A DNA stretch of 64,000 nucleotides from Cirrosporium novae-zelandiae (Eukaryota), in the NCBI GenBank assembly GCA_026023565.1, contig JAPETS010000008.1, positions 124,001 to 188,000 on the forward strand, written 5' to 3'. Both the position numbers and the translations under genes were made by a program. A model generated the notes under the pieces. That model was not told the origin of the DNA. It ran no database searches and saw only the letters and a program-made list of their open reading frames with translations. This document shows positions 10,609 through 28,734 of the stretch, piece after piece (within the stretch, counting starts at the first letter, position 1; every line of letters begins with the position of its first letter).

Positions 10609-11865
10609 ATGGCAACACCCTCCACCCTAACATTCATCCCCCGCGCGGCCTTCCCCCCGCTTTCTTCCTCGATACCACGCGCCTACTTCCTAGGCCACCA
10701 CCGCGCGGGCCTGCAGAAGATGAAGAGCATGACCTCGCTCATTGACCTGGTTATCGAGTGCCGCGATGCGCGGATCCCGGTCACGGGCCGCAACGAAATG
10801 TTCGAGGAGAGTTTGGGGGGGAAGCCTAGGCTGGTTGTTTATACAAAGGGTGACTTGATGGGCGGTGGTGAGGGGGCTCGGAAGGTGGGTTTTGCTTTTT
10901 TTTTTGTTTTTGTGTTCGTTTGTTTGGTTATTGAAATGTTGTATTTATATTGACATATCCATTCATCCTTGCTTTCTGCCTTCCCTTCTTTCCCTCCATC
11001 GATTAGACTAACCCCAACCCCCTCCCCCCCTTTCCACACTCCCCAGACCGAACAAACAATCCGCCAATGGGATTCCCCAACCCCAACCCTCTTCTCCTCA
11101 AACACCTCCCGCCCCTCAACCCGCCGCATCCTAAACTTCGCCCGCGCCCACTCCACCCGCACCTCCGCCCTCACCGGCACCCGCATGCTCGTCGTCGGCA
11201 TGCCCAACGTCGGAAAATCAACCCTTCTCAACTCCCTTCGAAACCTAAGCCTCCACAAACGGAAGGCCGCCGCCACGGGCGCCCAGCCCGGTATCACTCG
11301 AAAGGTGGGCACCAGTGTGAAGATTATTGAGGGGGAGGAAGGGAGAGGGGCTGTGTATCTGTTGGATACGCCGGGGGTGTTTGTTCCGTATGTGCCGGAT
11401 GCGGAGAGTATGTTGAAGCTGGCGCTTTGTGGGAATGTTAAGGATACTATTGTGCCGCCGACGGTGTTGGCGGATTATTTGCTGTTTCGGATGAATCTGA
11501 GTTTTGGGACTGTGGGAAGTGGGAGCGGAGTTGAAGGTAGAGGAGAAGGAGAAACGTGCTTCTACGCGCAGTACGCGGAGCCGACGAACGATGTTATGGT
11601 TTTGCTGGACGGGATCGCCCGACGCACGGGTCGGCTACGTAAAGGAGGCGAGCCGGATTTCGAGGCCGCCGCGCTCTGGTTCATTCAGAGGTGGAGGATG
11701 GGGCTTCTGGGCAAGTTTTTGCTGGATGATGTTAGTGAGGGGGCGTTGGAGAGGAGGAAGGCTGAGCTGAAGGCTTATGGGGGTAGTATGAATCAGGCTA
11801 TTAAGGCTGCTAAGGAGTTGAGGAAGCAGCGGGCGCTGATGAAAAGGAATGCAGATGCTGGATGA
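10609..11865 (+). CDS. MTG1: Mitochondrial ribosome-assembly GTPase 1 (RbgA/YlqF family), 2 exons: 10609-10884, 11047-11865
   Basis: YFLGHHRAGL and IDLVIECRDARIP N-terminal motifs; circularly permuted G4 (TKGD), G1 VGMPNVGKSTL, G2 PGITR, G3 LLDTPGV. Phase-0 intron 10885-11046 (GTGGGT...ACTAAC...CAG). Confidence 0.93.
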
Positions 11866-12093: not shown

Positions 12094-12897
12094 TTAGCCC
12101 AGCTTGTCGAGTAATCTTCTCCTTCTCCTCTCGACAAGTTCGTCCTGTACCTCCTCGAGACTTGGGAGCAACCATCCGTTCCCATCACCCTTATCCCCCG
12201 GGAGGGGCTCCCAATTCGCGTCTTCGTCCTGGACACCTCTAGCCACAAGAGCGTCAAACGCTTCCTTTTCCTTCCTTGCCTCGTACTCCAGTAACGTGCC
12301 ATCCTCCTCATCCAAGTTATACCCATAATACCCGGCGTCCACCTGCCGCCTCAAGTCCGCCCGACTCTGCAACGGCTTCTCCTCATGCTCCTGGCCCTTC
12401 CGGCTCGCCGCCTCAAACAGCTCCTTGACCCCCGGCAGCTCCCTCGCCCGCCCAAAATACCGATACCCTTTACCGCTCCCGGGGATCTCCCTCCCTTCCT
12501 CGTCATACACCTTGCCACCGCCCCTCATATAGTTCGGGCCGCCCAGATTCCGGATCTGCACCTCCCACATGTGCTTCTCCCGCATGGCCTTGTTGATCTC
12601 GTCGTTGAGGTCGCGGATCTGGTAGTCCGACAGCGACGGGTCCTGGATCCGGCTGACTTTTCGCGAGATTTCCTTGAGTACTTGGCCGCGCCATTTTTCG
12701 CATGATGGGATCGAGGTTACCTCCGTTATCATCTTCGGTCGTCGCGTGCGGCCCAGGTCGAGGATTCCGAGGTCCGCGGCTTGCTGCGCCCGGAAGCGGA
12801 ATAGCATCGACTGCGCCTTTTCTGAGTTTCGAGCCTAGGAGGGGGAAGTTAGTTGGGATGGTAGAAAGAGGGAAAGGGGACAGGAGAGGCGGACCAT
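12094..12897 (-). CDS. ISY1: Pre-mRNA splicing factor Isy1 (NineTeen complex); coding exon 1 is the ATG only (12895-12897), exon 2 is 12094-12834
   Basis: The spliced product begins MARNSEKAQSMLFRFR and contains IRDLNDEINK...EKHMWE...LGGPNY and GYRYFGRARELPGVKELFE. Intron 12835-12894 reads GTCCGC...CTAAC...TAG on the minus strand. Confidence 0.95.
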
Positions 12898-14820: not shown

Positions 14821-17434
14821 ACCTCCCACGTTGAAGCTTTATGTCTACGGCCGTCATTCTGATTCTTCGACCATATTGACTATCTAAAATCAGAAGCCCT
14901 TAGCCCAATATGACTAAAAACTAGAGTGGGAGAGAAAAACGGAAAACTATTTTTTTGGTTTTGTTATATCACGCCATGGACCAGCAAACTCGTATGACTC
15001 GCACTCTAGTATACTAGATAGCACTCCTATCTGAAGCTTATTTGCACATGGCTTCAACTAAGAACACCATCGACTTCTTTCGTTGCAGCAAACCTAGCAA
15101 TTTTTCGCCCAAAACGCGACCGAGCACGCATTTTCGGAGGCAACGTATTGGCTCTTTTGAGAATAGCTACATATAAGTAATCTACTCTTCTTACCTGTTT
15201 CTTATTCAACTACATTCCTGCATGCGCAAAACATCTCCAACACCCTTCTTCTAACACAGCATTCGTGCCATTCTCGCTCAATCGAGCTTACATATAGCCT
15301 TTAAGCTACTTACCTACCGCTCTCCCAGAAACAAAACAAAACAAAATGGCAACACCTCCATGCCATCCTAGCTCACGTCTCCCAAATAAAGTACAAGGAG
15401 TTCTGGACTACGCCGCTACTAGTTGAGGGGTTTGTTTAATATTTTTCAAACTGAAAAGAAAAAGAAGTCGACGAAAACTCTCCCCCAAGAAATGTTTCAA
15501 TTAGTGGGAATGAGACTGGGTAAAAGCTCAGCAGAGGAATACGCTTCCTGACTTAACTATCCCATGCGGAAAGCTTCCTACTGCATCCGTGGTTATCATT
15601 GAAGGTTAGACCGAACATGTTTCTTCGAGGATAAAGGTAGTGTTCTGCCGCCGTCACTCTAACCCGTGTCCAAACAACCATTTTTACTCCAAAATCTTCT
15701 TGGACGAGTCTGGAGATCCTCTAAAAACCCCTACCTCAAAATTCAAATAGTGGAGATGGAACTAGTTTAAACCTTCCATACTAGAGTTGCCTACTACACG
15801 CATGGTCGCTTTTTCAACTCGTTCCAACCACGCTAGTCACCATCATACCCTCTAATAGTCTAACAATTAGAACTTCTTCTTGTTATAGATATATATATAT
15901 ATTAACTATATAAACTTAATTTGTCAAGTTCTTCTTGCCATTGGGTCTTTTGCTCGAAGTAATAGCGGATATAAGTACATGTACAAAGGGCGTGTTCAGA
16001 TATTTGCTCTTTTTCTAACCGAGAGGGGAGGATAAACCTCTATGATTATACTAGGTTTATGGCTTAGTGAAAATTTTGTTGGATTGTTAATACGGATATA
16101 AGATAGAGAAGAAGCAGTTTCTCATAATCTAACGGCATCTAATAAGTAAAGGATGTTTTAGACGTTAGTTATATGTTTGGTCGAGTATGCGTTCTTATAT
16201 TTGAATTTGAGATTTGGAACCTGGAAGTACATAGGACTATATTAAGATGGCTTGAGTTCATTGTTGCTTTATGTTTTTTTGTTACTGCATTTGTTGGCGT
16301 TGTGTGTGAGAGGTTGGTTCTACATTTTTCGTTGGGGATTAGGGATGTACTGGCTTGACGGTATGAGAGGGAACGAGGGCGTGAGCATACAAGCGGAGGC
16401 GGCTGGGCTGGTGAAAGTAACAACACACCCTCACAAGCGAGGAGGGGTAACTATCTACATGTATAGATGGAGAGGAAGCTTTCCCTACATGCTAATATTT
16501 CCAGGAGTATTGAACTACTTTGAAAGTGAGTTATATAGACTAACTTTATGAGGCGCCCTCATTGGGCTAGGCCCAAGACCCTGATCGCCTTAGCTAACTG
16601 AGTTAAAAGAAACGACAGTGAGTTAGGCTTTTTACCCGACTTACACCTAACACCACTATATAAAGACCACAAGAGGCGCCCCTGCTGTGGGCATCCTGAC
16701 ATGCTAATCCCCTACCCCCAGCCTCTAGCTAGGCCTATGATCCCGATGAACCCCGATTTGGTGAAAGGGACCTCCGAATGAATCTCTTGAATTGCGTGGA
16801 TATAACAGTTTAAGTATATGATTGGAAAACAATGGAGCTAGGAGGAATTATAAAGCCTCTAGAGACCGAGCTTTCTCGAGTCCCTATTTTTTTAAGTTGA
16901 ACTTACGTTACCAGCTTGAGAACGCGCCTAGTTTGGACATTGTTCGTTCTCTTCTTCGCGTTAGAGCCATTGATTTAGCCTTGAGATAACATTCTTGCTT
17001 GATACTATGATATCGCCAGGAGTTCACGTTGTGTTGCAGAAGGATCAAGTAAGAAGAATAAGGAGTAAAGATCCTGATAACCTAGGAGATTGTTTGTGGA
17101 CTTCAACGTTCATCGGGATTCGGAACTCCTTTGTACTGCTTCGCTGTCGTTTGAGTGGTCTGTTCGTTCAAGATGGTGGGGCCTTATTGACGGGCGCAAA
17201 CTTATGGCTACAGACAGTATACGTACCGAAGCGGGGTAGCTAACCTCCCCTAGGAGATTAGCGTTAGCTTGATTATCCCGACGGTGGGCTCGAAAAACTA
17301 TCATCAGTTACTGCGCATAGCATGCGACTTCCTTATCATCAACCTGCTACCAGCTGCTAGTCTCATCATAATAATACTTACGCATTTCTGGCGGGCCGTT
17401 ATAGCCCCACCTCCCTAAAGGAACCATATCTGCT

Positions 17435-20400
17435 ATGGATCCTCTAAGCGCAGCTAGTAGCATTATCGCAGTCCTTCAGCTCACAGGAACGGTTGTTAAA
17501 TACCTTAACGGAGTGAAAAATGCGTCATCAGCAATTAAAGCGCTTCTGCTAGAAGTAAGCACCGTACAAGGAATTCTGACCAGCATAAAAGATATAGGAA
17601 ATGAAGCGAAACAAACCTGGATATCAAATGATCTGATTCCTGACCTTATAAAGCTTCTAAAGGGGCTAGAAAAAAAGCTGGCTCCCGTTCAGCAAGCAAC
17701 AGGTTTGAGACGGGCGAAAAATAAACTGGCATGGCCTTTCAAAGAGGGCGACTTTAAGGTTACCTTAGCTAGCGTTGAAAGACTTAAGTTATTTTTTAGA
17801 CTCGCTCTGCAGACGGACCATTTGTAAGTTATCGCTGTGGAAAGCTCTAAGCAAGCACCCTGACAAACACTGATAGCAAGGATACACAACTCGGAATAGA
17901 AAGGTTGCAGATCAATACCCAGGATATCAGGTCCCGACAAATCGGTAAGTAAAATGGCACTGAATGGAGAGAGGCCGTACCAATATGGATGTTTTACAGA
18001 TATGGAACGCAGAGACATTCTAAAATGGCTTTCATCTTATGATGTGTCAGCTAACCATAATGCTGCATGCAACAAGCACGAACCAACAACTCGTAGCTGG
18101 TTTTTTCAGTTAGAAGAGTTCAAGTCTTGGAAAGGAGGGTCCGGCGGGATGATCTGGATCCATGGTATCCGTACGAACCCCGAATCCTCCTGAAGAAATT
18201 GATAGACTAGGCAGTGGCTGATCCTCCTTCATTCAGCTGGGTGTGGCAAGTCTATACTATGGTAGGTAATATATTTTGTTACAACAGCAAAGCGCGAAGG
18301 CTGACACCGTATGTAGTTCTACGGTGATTGAAGACGTGAAGCAGTTATGCCAGGCGGAAGAGAGCAAAACATTTACCTACTTCTATTTCGACTTCACCAA
18401 TCCCAAGATGGGAATAGTCACGAACTTTCTACGTTCGATTATTGCACAATTAGCTGGGAGAAAGAAAGTGCTTCCTGAATCAGTTCGCAACTTGTACCAT
18501 GAATACATCCAGAGCAGACAGGGCCCCGACAAGGGGACATTGGTCACAATTGTTGCTTCCATAATTGAGAGCTTTGAGAGTTGTTATATTATATTGGATG
18601 CTTTGGATGAATGTGGATCTGTGGAGAATAGAAAATATGTGTTAGACGTCTTGCGTACTGTACTGATGATGAAAGCCGCAGAGAAACATGTGCATATGCT
18701 GGCTACCAGTCAGAAAGAGCTCGACATCCAAAAGGATTTGGAACCTGTAGTATCTGCTCAAATACTAATGGATGCAGCGAAAGTGGATGAAGATATTCGT
18801 CTACATATCCATAAACAACTTGATGAGAATGACAGATTGAAGCGTCATCCAAATTCTATCAAAAAAGAAATTATACGTAGTTTGGTTCAGAAAGCGCACG
18901 GAATGTGAGTACATCCGGACATGATATCCTTTTGGAAAGTCTAGACGAAGTAATGGCATTCTTCACAGGTTCCGTTGGGCTACTTGCCAGTTGGATATTC
19001 TAAAAAAGTGTAGGTCGGTAGACCAACTGAAAAAGGTCCTGAAAAAGACGCCCGAGACCCTCTCCGATACCTATGACCGTATCCTAGAAAACATCAGCGA
19101 GGATGATGTTGATCTAGCGCATGCGGCATTCCAATGGCTAGCAGTTTCACAACGACCCCTATATTTGGATGAGGTTGCTGAAGCCGCTGTCCTAGAACCA
19201 AGAAAGGAGCTGGATAAAGAAAAAAGATTACAGCTGCCTGAGGATATCCTTGAAATTTGCTCCAGTCTCGTCACTAACGTCACTACGACTATAGGGGGCA
19301 GAAAGCGAGTGAAGATTAGGTTTGCGCATAGCTCGGTGGAGGAGTATCTTGTTTCCAATATGATTGAGCAACGACCTTCAGGCAAATTTTTCATCACTGA
19401 ATTTGATGCTCAAGAATCAATTGCGACCCACTGCTTGTCTTACATTCAAATGCTCCACCACTTGAAATCAATATCCGAAGAAACGACCAAAGAGTTTCCA
19501 CTGCTGAGATATGCGGCAAAATACTGGCCTGACCATGTCCTCCGCGTTAGAAGTATAGGGCGTTTGTCATCAGAATTAGAAACCCTAGTATTCGAGATTC
19601 TTGCGCCGCAAGAATCTACATATTTCCGTCACTGGCTCTGCGTTTATGACCCAGATTATCCATGGCGAGATGAAGAGCTAGAAACCAACCTAGGCAAGGT
19701 TCCATCGTCCCTCTACTATGGGGCAAGTTTTGGAATGGTCGAAGTAGTCAGCTTCCTCCTAGAGAAAGGAGTTGATGCGAATGCCCCGGGTGGCCAGTAT
19801 GGCAGTGCATTACAAGTGGCGGCATGGATGGGCCACAAAGAGATAGTAAGAGTCCTACTAAAACATGGAGCAAAGGTTGACGCACAAGGGGGCCATCAAG
19901 GATGCGCCGTTCATATGGCTGCAGCAAAAGGCAATTTGCAAATAGTGAAGCTTTTACTCGAATATGGGGCTGATGCTCATTTCCCGAGTGGCCATTACGG
20001 AAGCGCGCTTCATGCAGCAGCAGAGAATGGACAATTTGAGGTTGTGCAATTGTTACTTGTTAGCCGAACGTCAAACCTAACTCTAGGAACAAATTAGGCC
20101 AGACTCCATTGTGGTTGGCCGCATATAACGGATACGCCAATGTCGTCAGACTCTTGCTAGAGGAGAAAGATGTTGAGCCAGACTCCAGAAATGATTCAGG
20201 GCATTCACCACTATGGTGGGCAGCTCAGAATGGACATGAAGAGGTGGTAAAAATGCTGCTAGACCGGAAAGTTCAACCAGATTGCAAAGATCCTGTGGGT
20301 CGGACTCCCCTGAGTTTTGCGGCACAGAACGGACACAAAGAAGTGGTGCGCCTCCTTCTAGACCAAGACGGTATTGATTTAAACTTTGGAGATGAATGCA

Positions 20401-21887
20401 ACATTACTCCACTTACGAGAGCAGCACAAAACGGTCACACAGTCATTGTCAAGGTGTTGCTTGAAAGTGGTGCTAATCCAGACCCCCAAAGGCATGTATG
20501 GGGAGACACCACTTGCTGAAGCTGCTCAATACGGTCATGTCACCGTCGTAAAGCTACTCCTAGACCAAAATATCGATAGAGAATTCAAGGATGCATACGG
20601 ATAGACTGCATTGGATCACGCGGTGGCTAATAGACACGAGACATTGATTGAGATCCTTGGAGTATATGTAAGTGCGCAGGTTGAATCAAAGGTTGAGCCT
20701 TCTGAGGACCCACCGCCTTGTGCCGAGAATGAAACGGTACATCACCCCTTGGAGAATGACATGAGCGAGAAGAATAAGACATGGAATGAGCCGTCATCCC
20801 TGACAGCATTGACTTTGGATAAAGATCTTCAAGTAAGCCCTTATAAATTCATAGACAATCGCTCCAGCTAAATATCTTTAGCTATTATACTACCAAGGTA
20901 GCACCTTTGTGTTGATTGGCTTGAAAGCCGCTTGTGTCTACTAACAATTTCTTAGGTGATGATCAAAATATTTATGAGCTTCGCTGGGATGGAAAGCGGC
21001 AAGATGGTTGTAGTTCTGGGGTCATTGTCGCAAAGGCAAGAGCCCACAGCCTTATTGTAGTCACGGGATGGATATGGGATGATGTCGTTCATGTAAGTTT
21101 TTTTCAGTTTCGGCAAATATTGCATTGAGCTACTCACCCTCAGGTATATTAGATTCGCCTCTATTACCTCAACGCACACAATTATTTGCAAGAACATGCC
21201 TACACTTCCTCCACTGGACGGACCCCGGGTGCATTGAATGCACTGAATACTAAAGTTTCTCCGTTCAGCCAGATTGCTGTAACATCCTGGGGCGACCGAA
21301 ATATCTACGTTTTCTACCAAGATGATGATCTGACCATCCGTGAGCTTTGTGGATTGGTAGACAGGGGGGGTCATTCACACTGGCGTCCTGGGAGTAGAAT
21401 CGTCATAGTAGCACCTGGTTCCTTTATGGGTGTTGTGAGCTGGAAACGGAGCACCAGGACCAACCTGAGGCTCTATTATGAATCAGAGAACTACACGCTG
21501 AGAGAAAGATGCTGGGATGGTCCTTGGGACAGCAATGCCGGGTATTACAAATTGAATATTACTCCTGAGGCGCCAATTGCTGCCATTGCTTGGGGAAGTC
21601 TCGGCCTCGAAGGTTCGGGCTATGGGGGTTTCTATATGCGTATTTACACCATCGACGAATCTGGTAACGTTGTTGAAATTCTTTGGCGTTATGGATGGGT
21701 TAGACCTAGGATCATCGCAGCCAGTATTCCCAATAGCAAGTTGGCCGTCGTCCAACGGGGCTGTAGCGACGCTGATCTTGAAATACGCGTCTACTGCGCT
21801 AGCCAGGACAACATTCTTAATGAGCTGGGGTACTCAGGAGAAGAATGGAAAACCAGGGTTGTGACAGAAATCGATTTTGTGCTGTAA
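17435..21887 (+). pseudogene. Fungal NLR-like STAND gene (HeLo-like/SesA N-term, NACHT, winged helix, ~10 ankyrin repeats, fucose-lectin beta-propeller), disrupted in the ankyrin region
   Basis: Exons: 17435-17823, 17877-17944, 18000-18170, 18237-18261, 18317-18904, 18969-20832, 20882-20897, 20956-21092, 21153-21887. N-term MDPLSAASSIIAVLQL; Walker A WIHGIPGCGKS; Walker B IILDALDEC; AHGMFRWATCQLD; RFAHSSVEEYL; LRYAAKYWPDH. Lesions: -1 frameshift near 20060, +1 in the C-run 20483-20487, in-frame TAG at 20602-20604. Confidence 0.85.
20761..21887 (+). CDS. Fucose-specific lectin-like six-bladed beta-propeller module (AAL/FleA-like), uninterrupted
   Basis: After splicing three introns there are six repeats: LQLLYYQGDDQNIYELRWDG; IRLYYLNAHNYLQEHAY; IYVFYQDDDLTIRELC; LRLYYESENYTLRERCWDG; MRIYTIDESGNVVEILW; IRVYCASQDNILNELGY. 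Each is preceded by an S/A-x-(I/L/M)-(A/V/T/G) strand. From the in-frame ATG at 20761 the module is 319 aa. Confidence 0.75.
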
Positions 21888-23344
21888 TCTGGACTCTGGC
21901 ACAAGGAAAGTCATGTCCACGACGAAATTTGCTGTTGTTTTAGGTGTAGATTGGTTTCGATATCTCAGGGTATACATGCCGACGAAATTATCGCCGACTT
22001 TTAGAGAGACGCTTAGGATATTCGCTCTTTCTTAGTACAGGTTGGATCGACTGATAACCGTGGCCTGCGTTGTAAGGTTTTGTGCTGATCTCTTATAATG
22101 ATGATTGATATGACCATCTAAATGAATCCTGTGGTTTCTGTCCTCAGAAGAGCTGAAATTAATTCCCCGTCTTTGATTATGGAATTTGATCCCTTCTCAA
22201 TCAGATCAGGCAGTATGCACATCCGACAAGGACGGTATTTGCTGTTGTACAATATATTGAAATCTAGTATCGTACCTGGTCGTTTGTACAATAGCTCTTG
22301 ATCTTTGTGCGGAATGTTCTCCAAGGGGAATGGAACACGACCAACAGCTTTAGCATGCGGAGGATAGACGAGGATTGATGTCAAACCATGGATAGAATTT
22401 GCGGCTAGGTCAATGTTTTTATTCCTCATCATCCTCAGTGGATGTCGTTCCTAGGACCGAGATTTGCGAGAGGTGCTGTACCAGGAATAACCAATGGGTT
22501 AGCGAATTTCGGAGGCCGAGCTCTCGATCGGGAGTACCACAATAACCGAGAAGCGCGATCTTTGATCTTTTCGAATAATTCGTCTATCGATAATGAAGGG
22601 AGTAAGTAGTATTGCCGATGTGAAATTAAACGGGAAATTATTTTTTCTTAGCGGGAGCTAGCTATCTCAGGAAATTCCAAAGAGAAAAAAAGAAAATCTT
22701 CTCATCCCGCACGCAAGTATAGTACATGTAAACTTCCCACAACGTTTTACTGGGGCTTCAACTGACGTGCGGTCCCAAGTCCCCCCCTACTTAGCCCTAA
22801 CTTGTAGCCGACCCCTCCCTATCGAAAATAGCTAATTAACTAACTGAGATGCGGTTAAATGGAGACGCGGATAGATATCGTGTTATCGAACGACTAGCTT
22901 CGCTAGATTATTATCGATAATGCTCTTAATTACTGGAATGTTCCTCTCGATACCACGATACAAGAGAGGGCCGTCAAATTATGGTTCGCTAGGAATTATT
23001 TGGGGTGGGTTCGGGCTCGGTGTTACTATACTAATTACTTTATACAGCTGTGACACTTTTCTAAGATATTGTGGTGCCATTCACAAATTCAGTGTTAGTC
23101 AATCAAGTAAGTCAGTGACCCATCATTACCCCCGAAAGTCGTTCATCATTCATCTCATTATAAAACTAGCTTGAGACCACCAGGACCGTCTTGAAAGCGT
23201 CTCACCACACTAAGTACAATCTTTATCCTTGACTGTATCCCATCCCAAGCAGGTCGCTTTTTAGAAAGGTTTAATGGCCTGACTGACTCTCCCCCTCTCG
23301 GTACCTCCTAGAGAATTGAAAGGGGAATGTTCGACACCGTCCCC

Positions 23345-25091: not shown

Positions 25092-28000
25092 TTATTTTCC
25101 ACACCTTTTCTTGTGTTCTTTCCAATCCGCATACTGACATTTTAATGAACAGTAGCGAACATCACGGCACCGGCTACATTTCTGGAGACTTTTACTGTTA
25201 TCCGATTTCTCCGCCCCGCAAGAATTGCATCGATCACCCATGTCTGATTTTATACATCCCTTCAAGTTTACTTGGGAGGTGTCCTTCACATAAGGCACCG
25301 AGAACGATAGCGAGATAGCAGCTCGAACGGCATGCTTCCGGACTCTCTCCCATTCGGGGATGCCAGCTATGAACCCAGCCGGTAAGGTATCTTCCGCACA
25401 GGAACAGATAATATCTCGACCTTCCGCTGTGGATAGAGGTATTTGTGCGTTGGTGTATTCACAGGAGGTGCGGTGTTTCCATTGTCTGCAGCGTTCGATC
25501 CAGGCAGGTATGATTTTTTTCCAGAGTTTTAGCCCATCATCATCGACCTTGATATTATCGATTTGGATCTCGTGTAATCTTTCCAGAAATACATGAAGCT
25601 GTGGCATCAATCGGTGAGTCAAAGGTAAGACGGCTGCGTCAAGCACCACGGTATGGTTTGCCATATCGAGTCGGAGAAAGGAGACAAAAACAAGTATATG
25701 GATGCTACCTTCTGTAACATGGTTGATGCTGAAAACCCGAGAACGTTTGGCGCCCTGTAACCCGGCGAAAGTCGTGAATAAATAGAACAAAGCTTCTTTG
25801 AAGTTGAGTCTGACATCTGGAGAATTGGCATTCGACCTCATTGATTCATCTTTCAGTATTTGCTCCCTGATCGAAAGCACGTAGGTAGCATGAGGGATTA
25901 ACCATTGTAAATCCTCGGGTTTTGTGATATCAAGGATCGGAAGACAATCAAGATTTAGTGAGTGCATGTTCATGACTACCGGATCACCTCCATCTAGGAC
26001 CAAAGGATACATGAATTCTGGATAATTTTCTGCCCTTGCCGGCTGTGCAATGGGAGCCACGATTTCTACATAAGATAACTTTCGGTTGACTCGGACCCTG
26101 GTGCACGAACCCACTACTGGGACAGGAAACTCGACATAGTATCGGTAAGGCTTTTCCCCAATGTTTATAGCAATGACCAAAGGAGATGTCTGATGTATCT
26201 TCGCGAATGCCCCATCGTTGAGAACTATCTTCATGTTATCAGAAAGAAAGTTCACACGGCCCGTCAAAGTTTCTACCCTTATATGGGGAGAATCTACATT
26301 CGCTGTAATGGTTGTGTCAATGGCACTGCTGGGGGATATATTGGGCATCGTAGCTGTATCTGAAAACTTGCATACCGACATGTCTCCGGATTGGTGTGGC
26401 CGATGCTTGGTAATATAAACATTATGTTTATTCATTACCCCCGTTTCGTATACAAGCAGCCTCCTTCCAAGAGCTCTTGCGAATGTAATTGCGTTGTCCG
26501 GTGTTCTTCTGGGGCCAAACGCTACTGTGACATTCTCCGAATCATGCCAAGCTAACTTGCTCGGAGCATAAAATAATGCGATGAGCGACGAAGTTCCCTT
26601 CCAACCGCTAGGGTCTTCTTCAATCTTCAGTTTGAAATTGTCGTCATCTATTTCACCTACGGGCACTATTTCCCCAAATGCCAACTGCACAACCGCAAAT
26701 CCCTGGGTCCAGTCTGACCCTTGTAAAAAGCACTCGACTAGAGGTCTACCCAGTTCAGTTTGTGGAAGTCCAGTAAAAACTTCAAGTTTGGTTCTCGGAA
26801 TCTTTAGAGTGATACACACTATTCCTGGGATGTCTTTCCATGCGCGGATTTCCCTGACGTCTTTATGATCCCAATGAATGACATTCCGCGGTTCACATAA
26901 AGGCACGGCGCATACCTTGAAAATATAGAGTTGAGTATAGAGCTCGCAGGCGTAATGACGAGTAATAATAGAACCATCTGTAACAAGATTGATGAAATTC
27001 TGCATTACTTGTCCCCAGTCTCCAACAGCCTTATGTTGGACAAATGCACAAAATGCAGCCATGCTTCCGCTGTGATACCGCGGAAATGATAGGTTTGGGG
27101 GCTTCGAGATGTCGAAGTCAGCCCAACTATGCATTGGATCCTGAGGATAGAACATATTTAGATAGACCTCATATAGAATATGAGCAAGATCTTTTTCAGG
27201 CCATCGAATGATCTCCCTGGCCTTCGTTGCTGAAGTTGATCTTTTCCAGGCCAATCTACAATTCATTTGTCCGATTTCGTTGACAGTTGGTGTGGCCGTG
27301 GCGTTTGTCCAGTATGCAATAGGAAATAGTTCAAATATCAACGACAGCGTAGCAAAATCGCCGCAAACATGATTATCCACCAACTCCTTGACGTTGCTTT
27401 TGCCTCTAACCAACAACTCCGTGTAGAGAGTTGAGAAAGCATAATTGCTGAGCAGTGGAGAAGCTGCTGTTAAGAGAGTGATTGCCCCAAAGTGATTTGC
27501 AAGGTTGGAAGTATCAATCACATTGAACGAAGACGGGGCACGCCCCGTTGTGGTATAGTCTTCGCTATCGAAAACTAGTGGCTCTAGATGATATGGGTCA
27601 CGATACCAATTTGCGGTGCTACTATCTTCAGTTACTTGATGATGTTGTAATGTGTGACAGAAAGCAATTGCATCCCCAGAGAAAAATCGTACTGTGAAAT
27701 TATGATGAGTCCGCCTTTCGAAAGCAGTACCCCAAGCTTGAAACTGAAACCGTGCAGCTTCTATCACTTTTTGAAGATCAGAGCAATTTCGGGTGGGCGG
27801 ACGCAGAGGCGAATTGGAAGTCAATGGGGCATAAACCGTGGCGAGATGAAATCCAAGAAGCGGGTCGGTCGCATAATGAAGGGTAGATGTATCTGTAACT
27901 AGGGGCGCAAACATTGGATTAGGAGACTCGGCTCGAGATATGCGCTCTTGATCTTGATCCGCGACCCCAAAGTCCCAAAAATTGTTATACAAAAGAGCAA

Positions 28001-28734
28001 GTTCCTCAACTGGTTTAACAGATTCAACGTTGACTGGAGCAGCTGATTTTAGGCCCGTGATCACCATACCAGTGCCAAGGTCAGTAGTCTCCAGACCTAT
28101 AGCTTCCTGAATAGAAGATTCGTAGTGTCGGTGGTAGGCTGTCTTTTCATCTCCCTTCAATTCCGCTATAAGATAAGAATTCCATATAAGTCTAATCTTG
28201 GCAAGGGTCCCTTCATCACAAATCCTAAGGAATCCACCGTATTTGCAGCTATGCCAACTCTGAAGTGAAATTGATAGAGCATGGAGCTTTTCTGCCTGCA
28301 TACACAGGAGTTTGAGCGATGAATCATCGAGAAAAAGACTGTAATAGATATGCCAAATGGATTCGTTGTTAAGACACTCAACATCATCCACAAAAAGCGT
28401 GTATAATAGAATATTTCGAGCTATGGAAAAGTTAGTTATAATTTTGAAGGCGTAGATAAGCAAACCAAGCATTGCAGGTTCGATATCACAACAAGTGATA
28501 TCAATTTGGCGGACAGCTACTCGTCAATCAGCGGTAATTTTTATTAATCGTGCGTATTGTTGAGAGATTACCATCACAGTAAGCTGTGAAGAGAATGTGA
28601 CGAGCATCACCACATCCGAGAAGCAATATATCGGCTTTCTGGTCTTGTGGAAGGTCTTGAGTTAAGCACACAGCAGGCGTATTTCCAAGAGGGTAGAAGA
28701 AAGAAACAAGATTGAGAACTACTGGAGTAAGCAT
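25092..28734 (-). CDS. DUF4470-type / MYND zinc-finger protein, 3 exons: 28572-28734, 28466-28516, 25092-28420
   Basis: N-term FFYPLGNTPAVCLTQDLP...DILLLGCGDARHILFT and ITCCDIEPAML-ARNILL; FNVIDTSNL; ERCRQWKH...CEY; C-terminal MYND finger CNSC...CSRC...YCSLKCQYADWKEHKKRC. Introns 28517-28571 and 28421-28465. Confidence 0.9.

Follow-up and report, generated by a model that had tools for sequence, protein, structure and literature searches.

A probably pseudogenised NACHT-ankyrin receptor gene of Cirrosporium novae-zelandiae with an AAL/FleA-type lectin end, and its unbroken homologue

A locus on the forward strand of a 64-kb stretch of Cirrosporium novae-zelandiae DNA (the window, whose numbering is used for all genome positions) encodes the parts of a fungal NLR (NOD-like receptor; NOD, nucleotide-binding oligomerization domain) and, behind them, a lectin. 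As assembled from stop-to-stop open reading frames (ORFs) and splicing, the locus (17435-21887) comprises nine exons and eight GT..AG introns of 49-66 nt, with a total of 3990 coding nucleotides (nt). The encoded parts follow one another in the order helical N-terminus, NACHT/NPHP3_N, 10 ankyrin repeats, a 45-amino acid (aa) acidic linker and a lectin of the AAL/FleA type. The annotated counterpart of the locus is KAI9737778.1 (M1834_009146, 1242 aa), and the borders of exon 2 were set by comparison with this protein and with KAF3941614.1, a homologue from Dactylella cylindrospora. The exons are as follows:

17435..17823, + strand: exon 1, with an ATG at 17435 and the donor GTAAGT at 17824; helical N-terminal domain with weak PigL_N/SesA resemblance
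17877..17944, + strand: exon 2, between the introns 17824-17876 and 17945-17999; agrees with the residues of KAI9737778.1 and KAF3941614.1
18000..18170, + strand: exon 3, whose last residues (...IWIHGI) lie directly before the P-loop
18237..18261, + strand: exon 4, a 25-nt micro-exon with the Walker A motif (PGCGKSIL), also present in KAI9737778.1
18317..18904, + strand: exon 5, NACHT/NPHP3_N core
18969..20832, + strand: exon 6, remainder of the NOD, winged helix, ankyrin repeats 1-10, linker and first beta-strand of lectin blade 1
20882..20897, + strand: exon 7, a 16-nt micro-exon (LLYYQ plus 1 nt) encoding strand 2 of blade 1; its counterpart in KAF3941614.1 is FLFYQ
20956..21092, + strand: exon 8, remainder of blade 1 and beginning of blade 2
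21153..21887, + strand: exon 9, lectin blades 2-6 and a TAA stop

In Pfam scans, NPHP3_N was matched at E 1.3e-19 by exon 5 alone and at 4.6e-37 by KAI9737778.1, which also matched NACHT at 29.1 bits (cutoff 26.7), and the Walker A motif GIPGCGKS spans exons 3 and 4. Within exon 6, the ankyrin region (~19705-20658) matched Ank families at E 1e-23 to 1.9e-36 and holds ten repeats by count on the translation; it is followed by the linker (20659-20793), whose 45 aa include 10 D/E vs. 3 K/R. Exon 9 matched Fungal_lectin (PF07938) at E 2.4e-28 (99.9 bits, cutoff 25.3), and six lectin blades were counted by motif on the translation, the same number as in the predicted fold of KAF3941614.1. The initial annotation of the locus had named a NACHT domain, about 10 ankyrin repeats, an acidic linker of ~40 aa and a six-bladed fucose-lectin module, and each of these was recovered. 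It had also placed the last ankyrin repeat and the lectin in one frame with no spacer between them, in agreement with our finding that 20605-20832 is a single open stretch within one exon, from which the final ankyrin helix, all of the linker and strand 1 of lectin blade 1 are read (SSLTALTLDKDLQ). Because the ankyrin-linker-lectin junction lies inside one exon, the lectin is the C-terminal module of an NLR and not an adjacent gene with its own 5' region.

The D. cylindrospora (Orbiliomycetes) protein, KAF3941614.1 (named 'Inversin', 1293 aa), has the same architecture end to end and is unbroken at all three of the sites at which the window copy carries the lesions described below. Its identity to the read-through translation of the window copy is 52% in the N-terminus (159 positions, aligned with the exon 1 region), 49% in the NACHT-winged helix domain (WHD) part, 58% in the ankyrin region, 36% in the linker and 56% in the lectin, where the alignment is near-gapless, with a single 1-residue gap. 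The KAF3941614.1 lectin scored 125.8 bits to PF07938, over profile positions 8-293 of 299. An EDPPP motif is common to the two linkers, and since the KAF3941614.1 linker has no Met, there is no separate lectin start within it. The proposal that the lectin is part of an NLR gene, and not always a gene of its own, is therefore upheld by a colinear fusion in D. cylindrospora. We are confident that the NLR-lectin fusion is real.

The coding sequence of the window copy is interrupted by three lesions (two frameshifts and one in-frame TAG), all in exon 6 and inside the ankyrin array. These lesions, together with an in-frame ATG in the linker, are:

~20065-20066, + strand: -1 frameshift in ankyrin repeat 4; one base is missing, leaving an orphan 'CG' of the lost codon (frame 1 to frame 0)
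20483-20487, + strand: +1 frameshift between ankyrin repeats 8 and 9; a C5 run with one extra base (frame 0 to frame 1)
20602-20604, + strand: in-frame TAG inside ankyrin repeat 10 (..KDAYG*TALDHA)
20761..20763, + strand: in-frame ATG that lies within the linker and 13 codons ahead of blade 1; a possible start of a stand-alone lectin, in the broken copy only

KAF3941614.1 aligns gap-free across all three lesion sites: it is continuous at the counterpart of 20065-20066 (LLLSRPDVDPN), unbroken at that of 20483-20487 (NPDPKAMYGETP), and has an Arg where the window copy has the TAG (KDAYGRTALDFA). After 20065 the original frame ends at a TAG (20095-20097), giving a predicted product of 789 aa that contains the N-terminus, NACHT and about 3.7 ankyrin repeats and ends before the lectin. 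Splicing cannot remove any of the three exon 6 lesions. The initial annotation, which was silent on the integrity of the gene, had joined the locus by splicing alone, and in this respect it has to be corrected. Because translation of the spliced message would end after 789 aa, NOD and lectin are uncoupled in this genome. The working receptor that had been envisaged at the locus is not upheld, the copy being broken upstream of its lectin, and we consider the window copy likely to be dead as a receptor. KAI9737778.1 is a gene-prediction artefact, in which invented introns bypass the lesions and drop conserved ankyrin and lectin residues; besides the three lesions, this mis-spliced model lacks the segment FRWATCQLDILKKCR and the blade-1 micro-exon.

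The two frameshifts are opposite in sign, lie ~420 nt apart and sum to no net change of frame, and the stretch that they enclose is conserved, in its own reading frame, with 60% identity to KAF3941614.1. A single event, for instance a patch repair or a conversion, may have produced both. Repeat-induced point mutation (RIP) was considered as a cause of the lesions and rejected: across 18-22 kb the TpA/ApT index was 0.70-0.73 and the (CpA+TpG)/(ApC+GpT) index 1.24-1.50, values that carry no RIP signature by the usual thresholds. No DNA-level tandem repeat was found in the ankyrin array, the repeats having diverged, and repeat instability was rejected as well.

The family of the lectin was apparent from exon 9, which matches the solved lectins AOL, AAL, FleA and AofleA with E values from 1.9e-18 to 1.1e-14. 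An AlphaFold2 (AF2) model of the C-terminal 327 residues of KAF3941614.1, built from a 38-row alignment, had a predicted local distance difference test (pLDDT) score of 87.4 and a predicted template modelling score (pTM) of 0.89. In Foldseek this model superposed on FleA (6z6c) with template modelling (TM) scores of 0.83/0.86 and a root-mean-square deviation of 2.2 A, on AAL (1ofz) with TM 0.79/0.83, and also on AofleA and AOL (range TM 0.78-0.86). As modelled, the C-terminal module is a six-bladed lectin propeller of the AAL/FleA type. For the window copy we infer a six-bladed propeller from its near-gapless, 56%-identity alignment to the modelled homologue.

In AAL, each sugar site is formed by an Arg and a Glu of one blade together with two residues from the blade that follows, a Tyr/Trp that stacks and a Trp (available text of PMC5726637), and the FleA sites follow the same residue scheme (available text of PMC3858362). 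We anchored the Arg/Glu register on the HMMER alignment to AAL, so that the site assignments below are at the level of motifs and are not structural measurements. In that alignment AAL R77/E89/Y92/W97 correspond to R212/E224/Y227/W232 of exon 9, and R179/E191/W194/W199 to R106/E118/W121/W125. The Arg+Glu pair is kept in four of the six blades (2, 4, 5, and 6), in the window copy and KAF3941614.1 alike. Blade 1 has Leu (window copy) or Phe (KAF3941614.1) in place of the Arg, while blade 3 has Tyr in the window copy and in the metagenome fragment P0004, introduced below, and His in KAF3941614.1. Both aromatic partners are complete only at sites 4 and 5 of the window copy, which is without three Trp residues kept in its relatives: one is replaced by L68 (Trp in P0004 and KAF3941614.1) and two, in blades 1 and 2, by Arg (Trp in KAF3941614.1).

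When the lectin exon was searched exhaustively with HMMER against 1.84 billion cluster representatives, 189 matches had E <= 0.001, and the best 150 of these were available for inspection. The best match, P0004, is a 215-aa fragment from a Joint Genome Institute (JGI) metagenome, encoded on a contig of 1431 bp, with 79% identity to exon 9. It represents a third copy of this lectin lineage, with fewer lineage-specific changes than the window copy. Over 215 aligned positions of the lectin part, with KAF3941614.1 as the outgroup, 23 substitutions were unique to the window copy vs. 6 unique to P0004 (Tajima chi-square 9.97, p 0.0016; binomial p 0.0023), and the former include W68L, at exon 9 position 68. 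Judged by these counts, the excess in the window lineage, about 4 times the P0004 figure, fits relaxed constraint. The genomic context of P0004 and its relatives was sought by pattern scans of metagenome contigs, which gave 138 and 21 pattern matches, none of them confirmed.

All 36 matches of at least 510 aa among the best 150 of 189 were scanned with Pfam. Neither NACHT nor NB-ARC was present in any of these 36 long representatives, and a rescan at a weaker threshold (E <= 0.01) of 10 lectin-only proteins and P0003, a 707-aa Armillaria protein, gave no NOD domain. The lectin was accompanied by Ank plus Pkinase in six proteins, by Pkinase in two, by a sedolisin/S8 domain in six, by PNP_UDP_1 in three, by Jacalin in two, and by Peptidase_C70 and Peptidase_C1 in one each; 12 had the lectin only, and three were without a lectin match at 1e-5. 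The Fungal_lectin propeller thus recurs as a C-terminal module in Ank-Pkinase, Pkinase, PNP_UDP_1, sedolisin/S8, papain-type and Jacalin proteins of Pezizomycotina. A fungal origin was found for nine of ten representatives looked up, and one PNP_UDP-lectin protein is from D. cylindrospora. S8 peptidases were reportedly counted among the N-terminal modules of fungal NLRs by Dyrka in 2014. PNP_UDP_1 and Pkinase are N-terminal modules of fungal NLRs too (available text of PMC12258605).

Relatives of the fusion were also sought by word-based protein searches, which miss distant relatives. With the lectin exon as the query for longer proteins there were three matches among 1291 candidates, namely KAI9737778.1, KAF3941614.1 and P0003, in which Pfam found the lectin domain only; with the lectin part of KAF3941614.1 as the query, KAF3941614.1 and KAI9737778.1 were the only matches among 3110 candidates. 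The N-terminal 640 residues of KAI9737778.1 retrieved 31 NLR relatives among 8000 scored candidates, and PF07938 was present in two of them, again KAI9737778.1 and KAF3941614.1. The next-best NLR relatives were NACHT-Ank proteins of 34% identity that have no lectin. By these counts the architecture is rare. In the ESM Atlas, the ankyrin-linker-lectin part of KAF3941614.1 met generic ankyrin clusters only, at scores not exceeding 0.90. The classes of the two NLR-lectin proteins differ (Xylobotryomycetes, by label, and Orbiliomycetes), and the proteins are 46-58% identical, the next NLR relative standing at 34%. Their spread across two classes could reflect ancient conservation with many losses, or gene transfer.

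At the other end of the protein, exon 1 resembles PigL_N (PF17111; E 0.0015, 18.4 bits vs. a cutoff of 27.2) and SesA (E 0.0038, 17.8 bits vs. 26.3), in both cases below threshold. Two of the NLR relatives, P0154 and P0155, gave PigL_N at 3.4e-4 and 2.3e-5, likewise below the cutoff. For residues 1-172, AF2 predicts with moderate confidence a bundle made up entirely of helices (pLDDT 71.2, pTM 0.48). No structure in the PDB matched this model in Foldseek at E <= 0.001; nearest came the coiled-coil domain of Rx, an NLR of potato (E 0.097, TM 0.38/0.52). The initial annotation had proposed a HeLo-like/SesA N-terminus acting as a membrane-targeting death domain. A helical bundle is predicted, while neither the family label nor the death domain is established by these sub-threshold and structural comparisons.

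Canonical fungal NACHT-ANK NLRs, as described in the available text of PMC4986451, share with the window family an NPHP3_N/NACHT NOD, a winged helix of the GPIID type and an ankyrin sensor. They end with the repeats, whereas the window family continues into the lectin. In the same text the C-terminal annotations of fungal NLRs are grouped as ANK, WD, TPR or 'REST'. Extra C-terminal domains after ankyrin repeats are on record in fungal NLRs, including SPRY (in 46 NLRs of Sordariales), zinc fingers and PKinase (available text of PMC12258605). The Goodbye-T-NACHT-Ank-SPRY NLRs of that text are alike in layout, with an effector-type domain at the N-terminus (a putative one in the window family), then NACHT and ankyrin repeats, and an extra globular binding domain at the extreme C-terminus, and the extra domain of Ank-SPRY NLRs is interpreted there as an additional sensor. 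In the window family the extra domain is instead an AAL-type propeller, a carbohydrate binder and not a protein binder. By its predicted domains, then, the family is one of fungal NLRs with an additional C-terminal binding domain, here newly a lectin.

Among lectins, the closest comparison is with AAL, FleA (AFL), AOL and AofleA (PF07938; PDB 1ofz, 4agi, 5eo7, and 7c37), which are alike in sequence family and in the six-bladed fold of the homologue. The predicted Arg/Glu pair and next-blade Trp/Tyr fall in the AAL/FleA register in blades 2, 4, 5, and 6 of the window family. Unlike this group, blades 1 and 3 of the window family have no Arg, and the window copy is also short of three Trp. The AAL group proteins are stand-alone and of about 310-355 aa, whereas the lectin of the window family is the C-terminal module of an NLR of ~1330 aa. 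Nearest among the matches listed, as full-length lectin relatives, were the stand-alone lectin P0005 (E 6.4e-25) and then kinase fusions (E 3e-23 to 1e-16, 37-41% identity). In the Ank-Pkinase-Fungal_lectin and Pkinase-Fungal_lectin proteins of Pezizomycotina (among them TGO28133.1 of Botrytis paeoniae and KAI0600931.1 of Biscogniauxia sp.) the lectin likewise sits at the C-terminus, in company with ankyrin repeats; they have a protein kinase instead of the NACHT NOD and are without the N-terminal helical effector domain.

We found no published description of the NLR-lectin architecture, in literature coverage outside which subscription journals lay. 'Lectin' and 'PF07938' had no occurrences in the text of PMC12258605 and the 17 searchable files of its supplement, 'lectin' was absent from the texts of PMC9815663 and PMC10197012, and in PMC4986451 it occurred only within a reference. 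Conversely, 'NACHT' was absent from PMC10481521, a PF07938 paper, and from the lectin survey PMC8227253. In the text available, fucose-specific lectin and NACHT were mentioned together only in genome or proteome papers, each term once, and no paper named both Fungal_lectin and NLR.

We consider it probable that the locus represents a true fusion, in a single gene, of a NACHT-ankyrin NLR with an AAL/FleA-type lectin that has become a pseudogene in this copy, and that it belongs to a rare NLR-lectin family. Several points weigh against this assignment. The three lesions fall within 537 of the 3990 coding nt (the chance is 0.049 under uniform placement, and 0.014 for all to fall in the ankyrin region), and no stop or frameshift occurs in the ~2.4 kb upstream of them or in the ~1.1 kb that code for the lectin, despite the 23 lineage-specific substitutions. 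Since the lesions are clustered and the upstream and lectin parts lesion-free, the inactivation may be recent, or the halves may still be used separately. A contig of the sequencing run in Logan reproduces 17300-22000 without a single difference or gap, at a word depth of 355; it is probably from the same sample, so that an assembler error is excluded, while the lesions may be a variant specific to that sample. The KAF3941614.1 model, known from its protein record, is imperfect upstream, where it is without the Walker A micro-exon and ~34 aa after '...DMDIQL'. Lastly, sites 1 and 3 have no Arg in any copy, and the HeLo-like/SesA reading of the N-terminus is, from its sequence matches, a reasonable lead and not a result.

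Continued use of the separated halves would mean that, after the breakage, the genome encodes a truncated 789-aa NLR and a putative stand-alone cytoplasmic lectin of ~330 aa from the ATG at 20761, the lectin part still being a working gene. The clustering of the lesions in the ankyrin array (p 0.049) and the absence of stops and frameshifts from the lectin exons of 20761-21887, with their three introns, are in keeping with this, as is the ATG 13 codons before blade 1, a spacing that we take to resemble that of stand-alone lectins of the AAL/FleA family. However, the lectin of the window lineage has changed about 4 times faster than P0004 (23 vs. 6), it has lost Trp residues kept in relatives (W68L, and two W-to-R changes relative to KAF3941614.1), and the linker Met is not conserved in KAF3941614.1. 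We regard split use as unlikely. It is less likely still that the gene is intact in the organism and that errors of sequencing or consensus in a metagenome-assembled genome (MAG) produced the three lesions, even though the KAI9737778.1 record is labelled MAG, one lesion lies in a C5 homopolymer, and an annotated model of 1242 aa exists. That model depends on the introns invented over the lesions, at the cost of conserved ankyrin and lectin residues, the remaining two lesions are outside homopolymers, and the independent contig build is identical at its word depth of 355. The base quality looks good because long ORFs elsewhere in the window, encoding a 2071-aa myosin and a 1143-aa MYND-finger protein, are unbroken.

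As to what the pseudogenised gene and its intact relatives encode, we regard a glycan-sensor mechanism for the NLR-lectin family, proposed from domain content, as evenly balanced between right and wrong. In intact members, the ankyrin-lectin end would hold the NACHT inactive and release it once the propeller has bound a fucose-type glycan, one not normally in the cytosol that might come from an invader, an endosymbiont or ruptured endomembranes. Glycan binding would then allow the NACHT to oligomerise and the helical N-terminal domain, as the putative executing end, to cluster. Alternatively, the lectin may be an integrated decoy, in the sense of the NLR-ID concept from plants, and not a glycan sensor; it would be a copy of a cytoplasmic defence lectin, such that an antagonist molecule targeting lectins of this kind trips the receptor. 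The same lectin type does occur as stand-alone proteins and on kinases, PNP_UDP proteins and proteases, and D. cylindrospora also has a PNP_UDP-lectin protein. We consider a decoy improbable: we know of no effector that targets lectins, and the predicted Arg/Glu pair is kept at four of the six sites of the unbroken homologue, as in a working lectin, although a faithful decoy would be expected to keep the pair too.

To our knowledge, the ligands of fungal NLRs are largely unknown outside allorecognition. A lectin from a structurally well-understood family at the end of an NLR offers a concrete ligand hypothesis (fucosides) for the D. cylindrospora protein. Tentatively, and going by domain composition, the glycan-sensor proposal may be extended to a small family of fungal NLRs, drawn from more than one class, whose ligand-binding end is an AAL-type fucose lectin and which would act as cytosolic glycan sensors within a wider, undescribed 'lectin-capped' set of cytosolic signalling proteins (Ank-kinase-lectin, PNP_UDP-lectin, and sedolisin/S8-lectin), the window copy being a recently lost member. 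If so, these would be the first fungal NLRs with a ligand class predictable from sequence, and the lectin-capped set would couple the same propeller to modules that fungal NLRs use as N-terminal effectors. The promiscuity of the propeller, found on kinases, PNP_UDP phosphorylases and proteases, suggests a broader theme of glycan-triggered signalling.

Within the 64-kb window, no second copy of the locus was found, as the 17 tblastn high-scoring segment pairs (HSPs) included none beyond 17300-22000. Pfam gave no transposon and no other NLR near the locus, and the surroundings consist of ordinary housekeeping genes, which include the following neighbours identified by Pfam:

234-1526, + strand: squalene epoxidase
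10954-11862, + strand: MMR_HSR1 GTPase
12097-12834, - strand: Isy1
25095-28523, - strand: MYND-finger protein, 1143 aa
42731-49706, - strand: class-II-like myosin, 2071 aa
62528-63787, - strand: aspartyl protease

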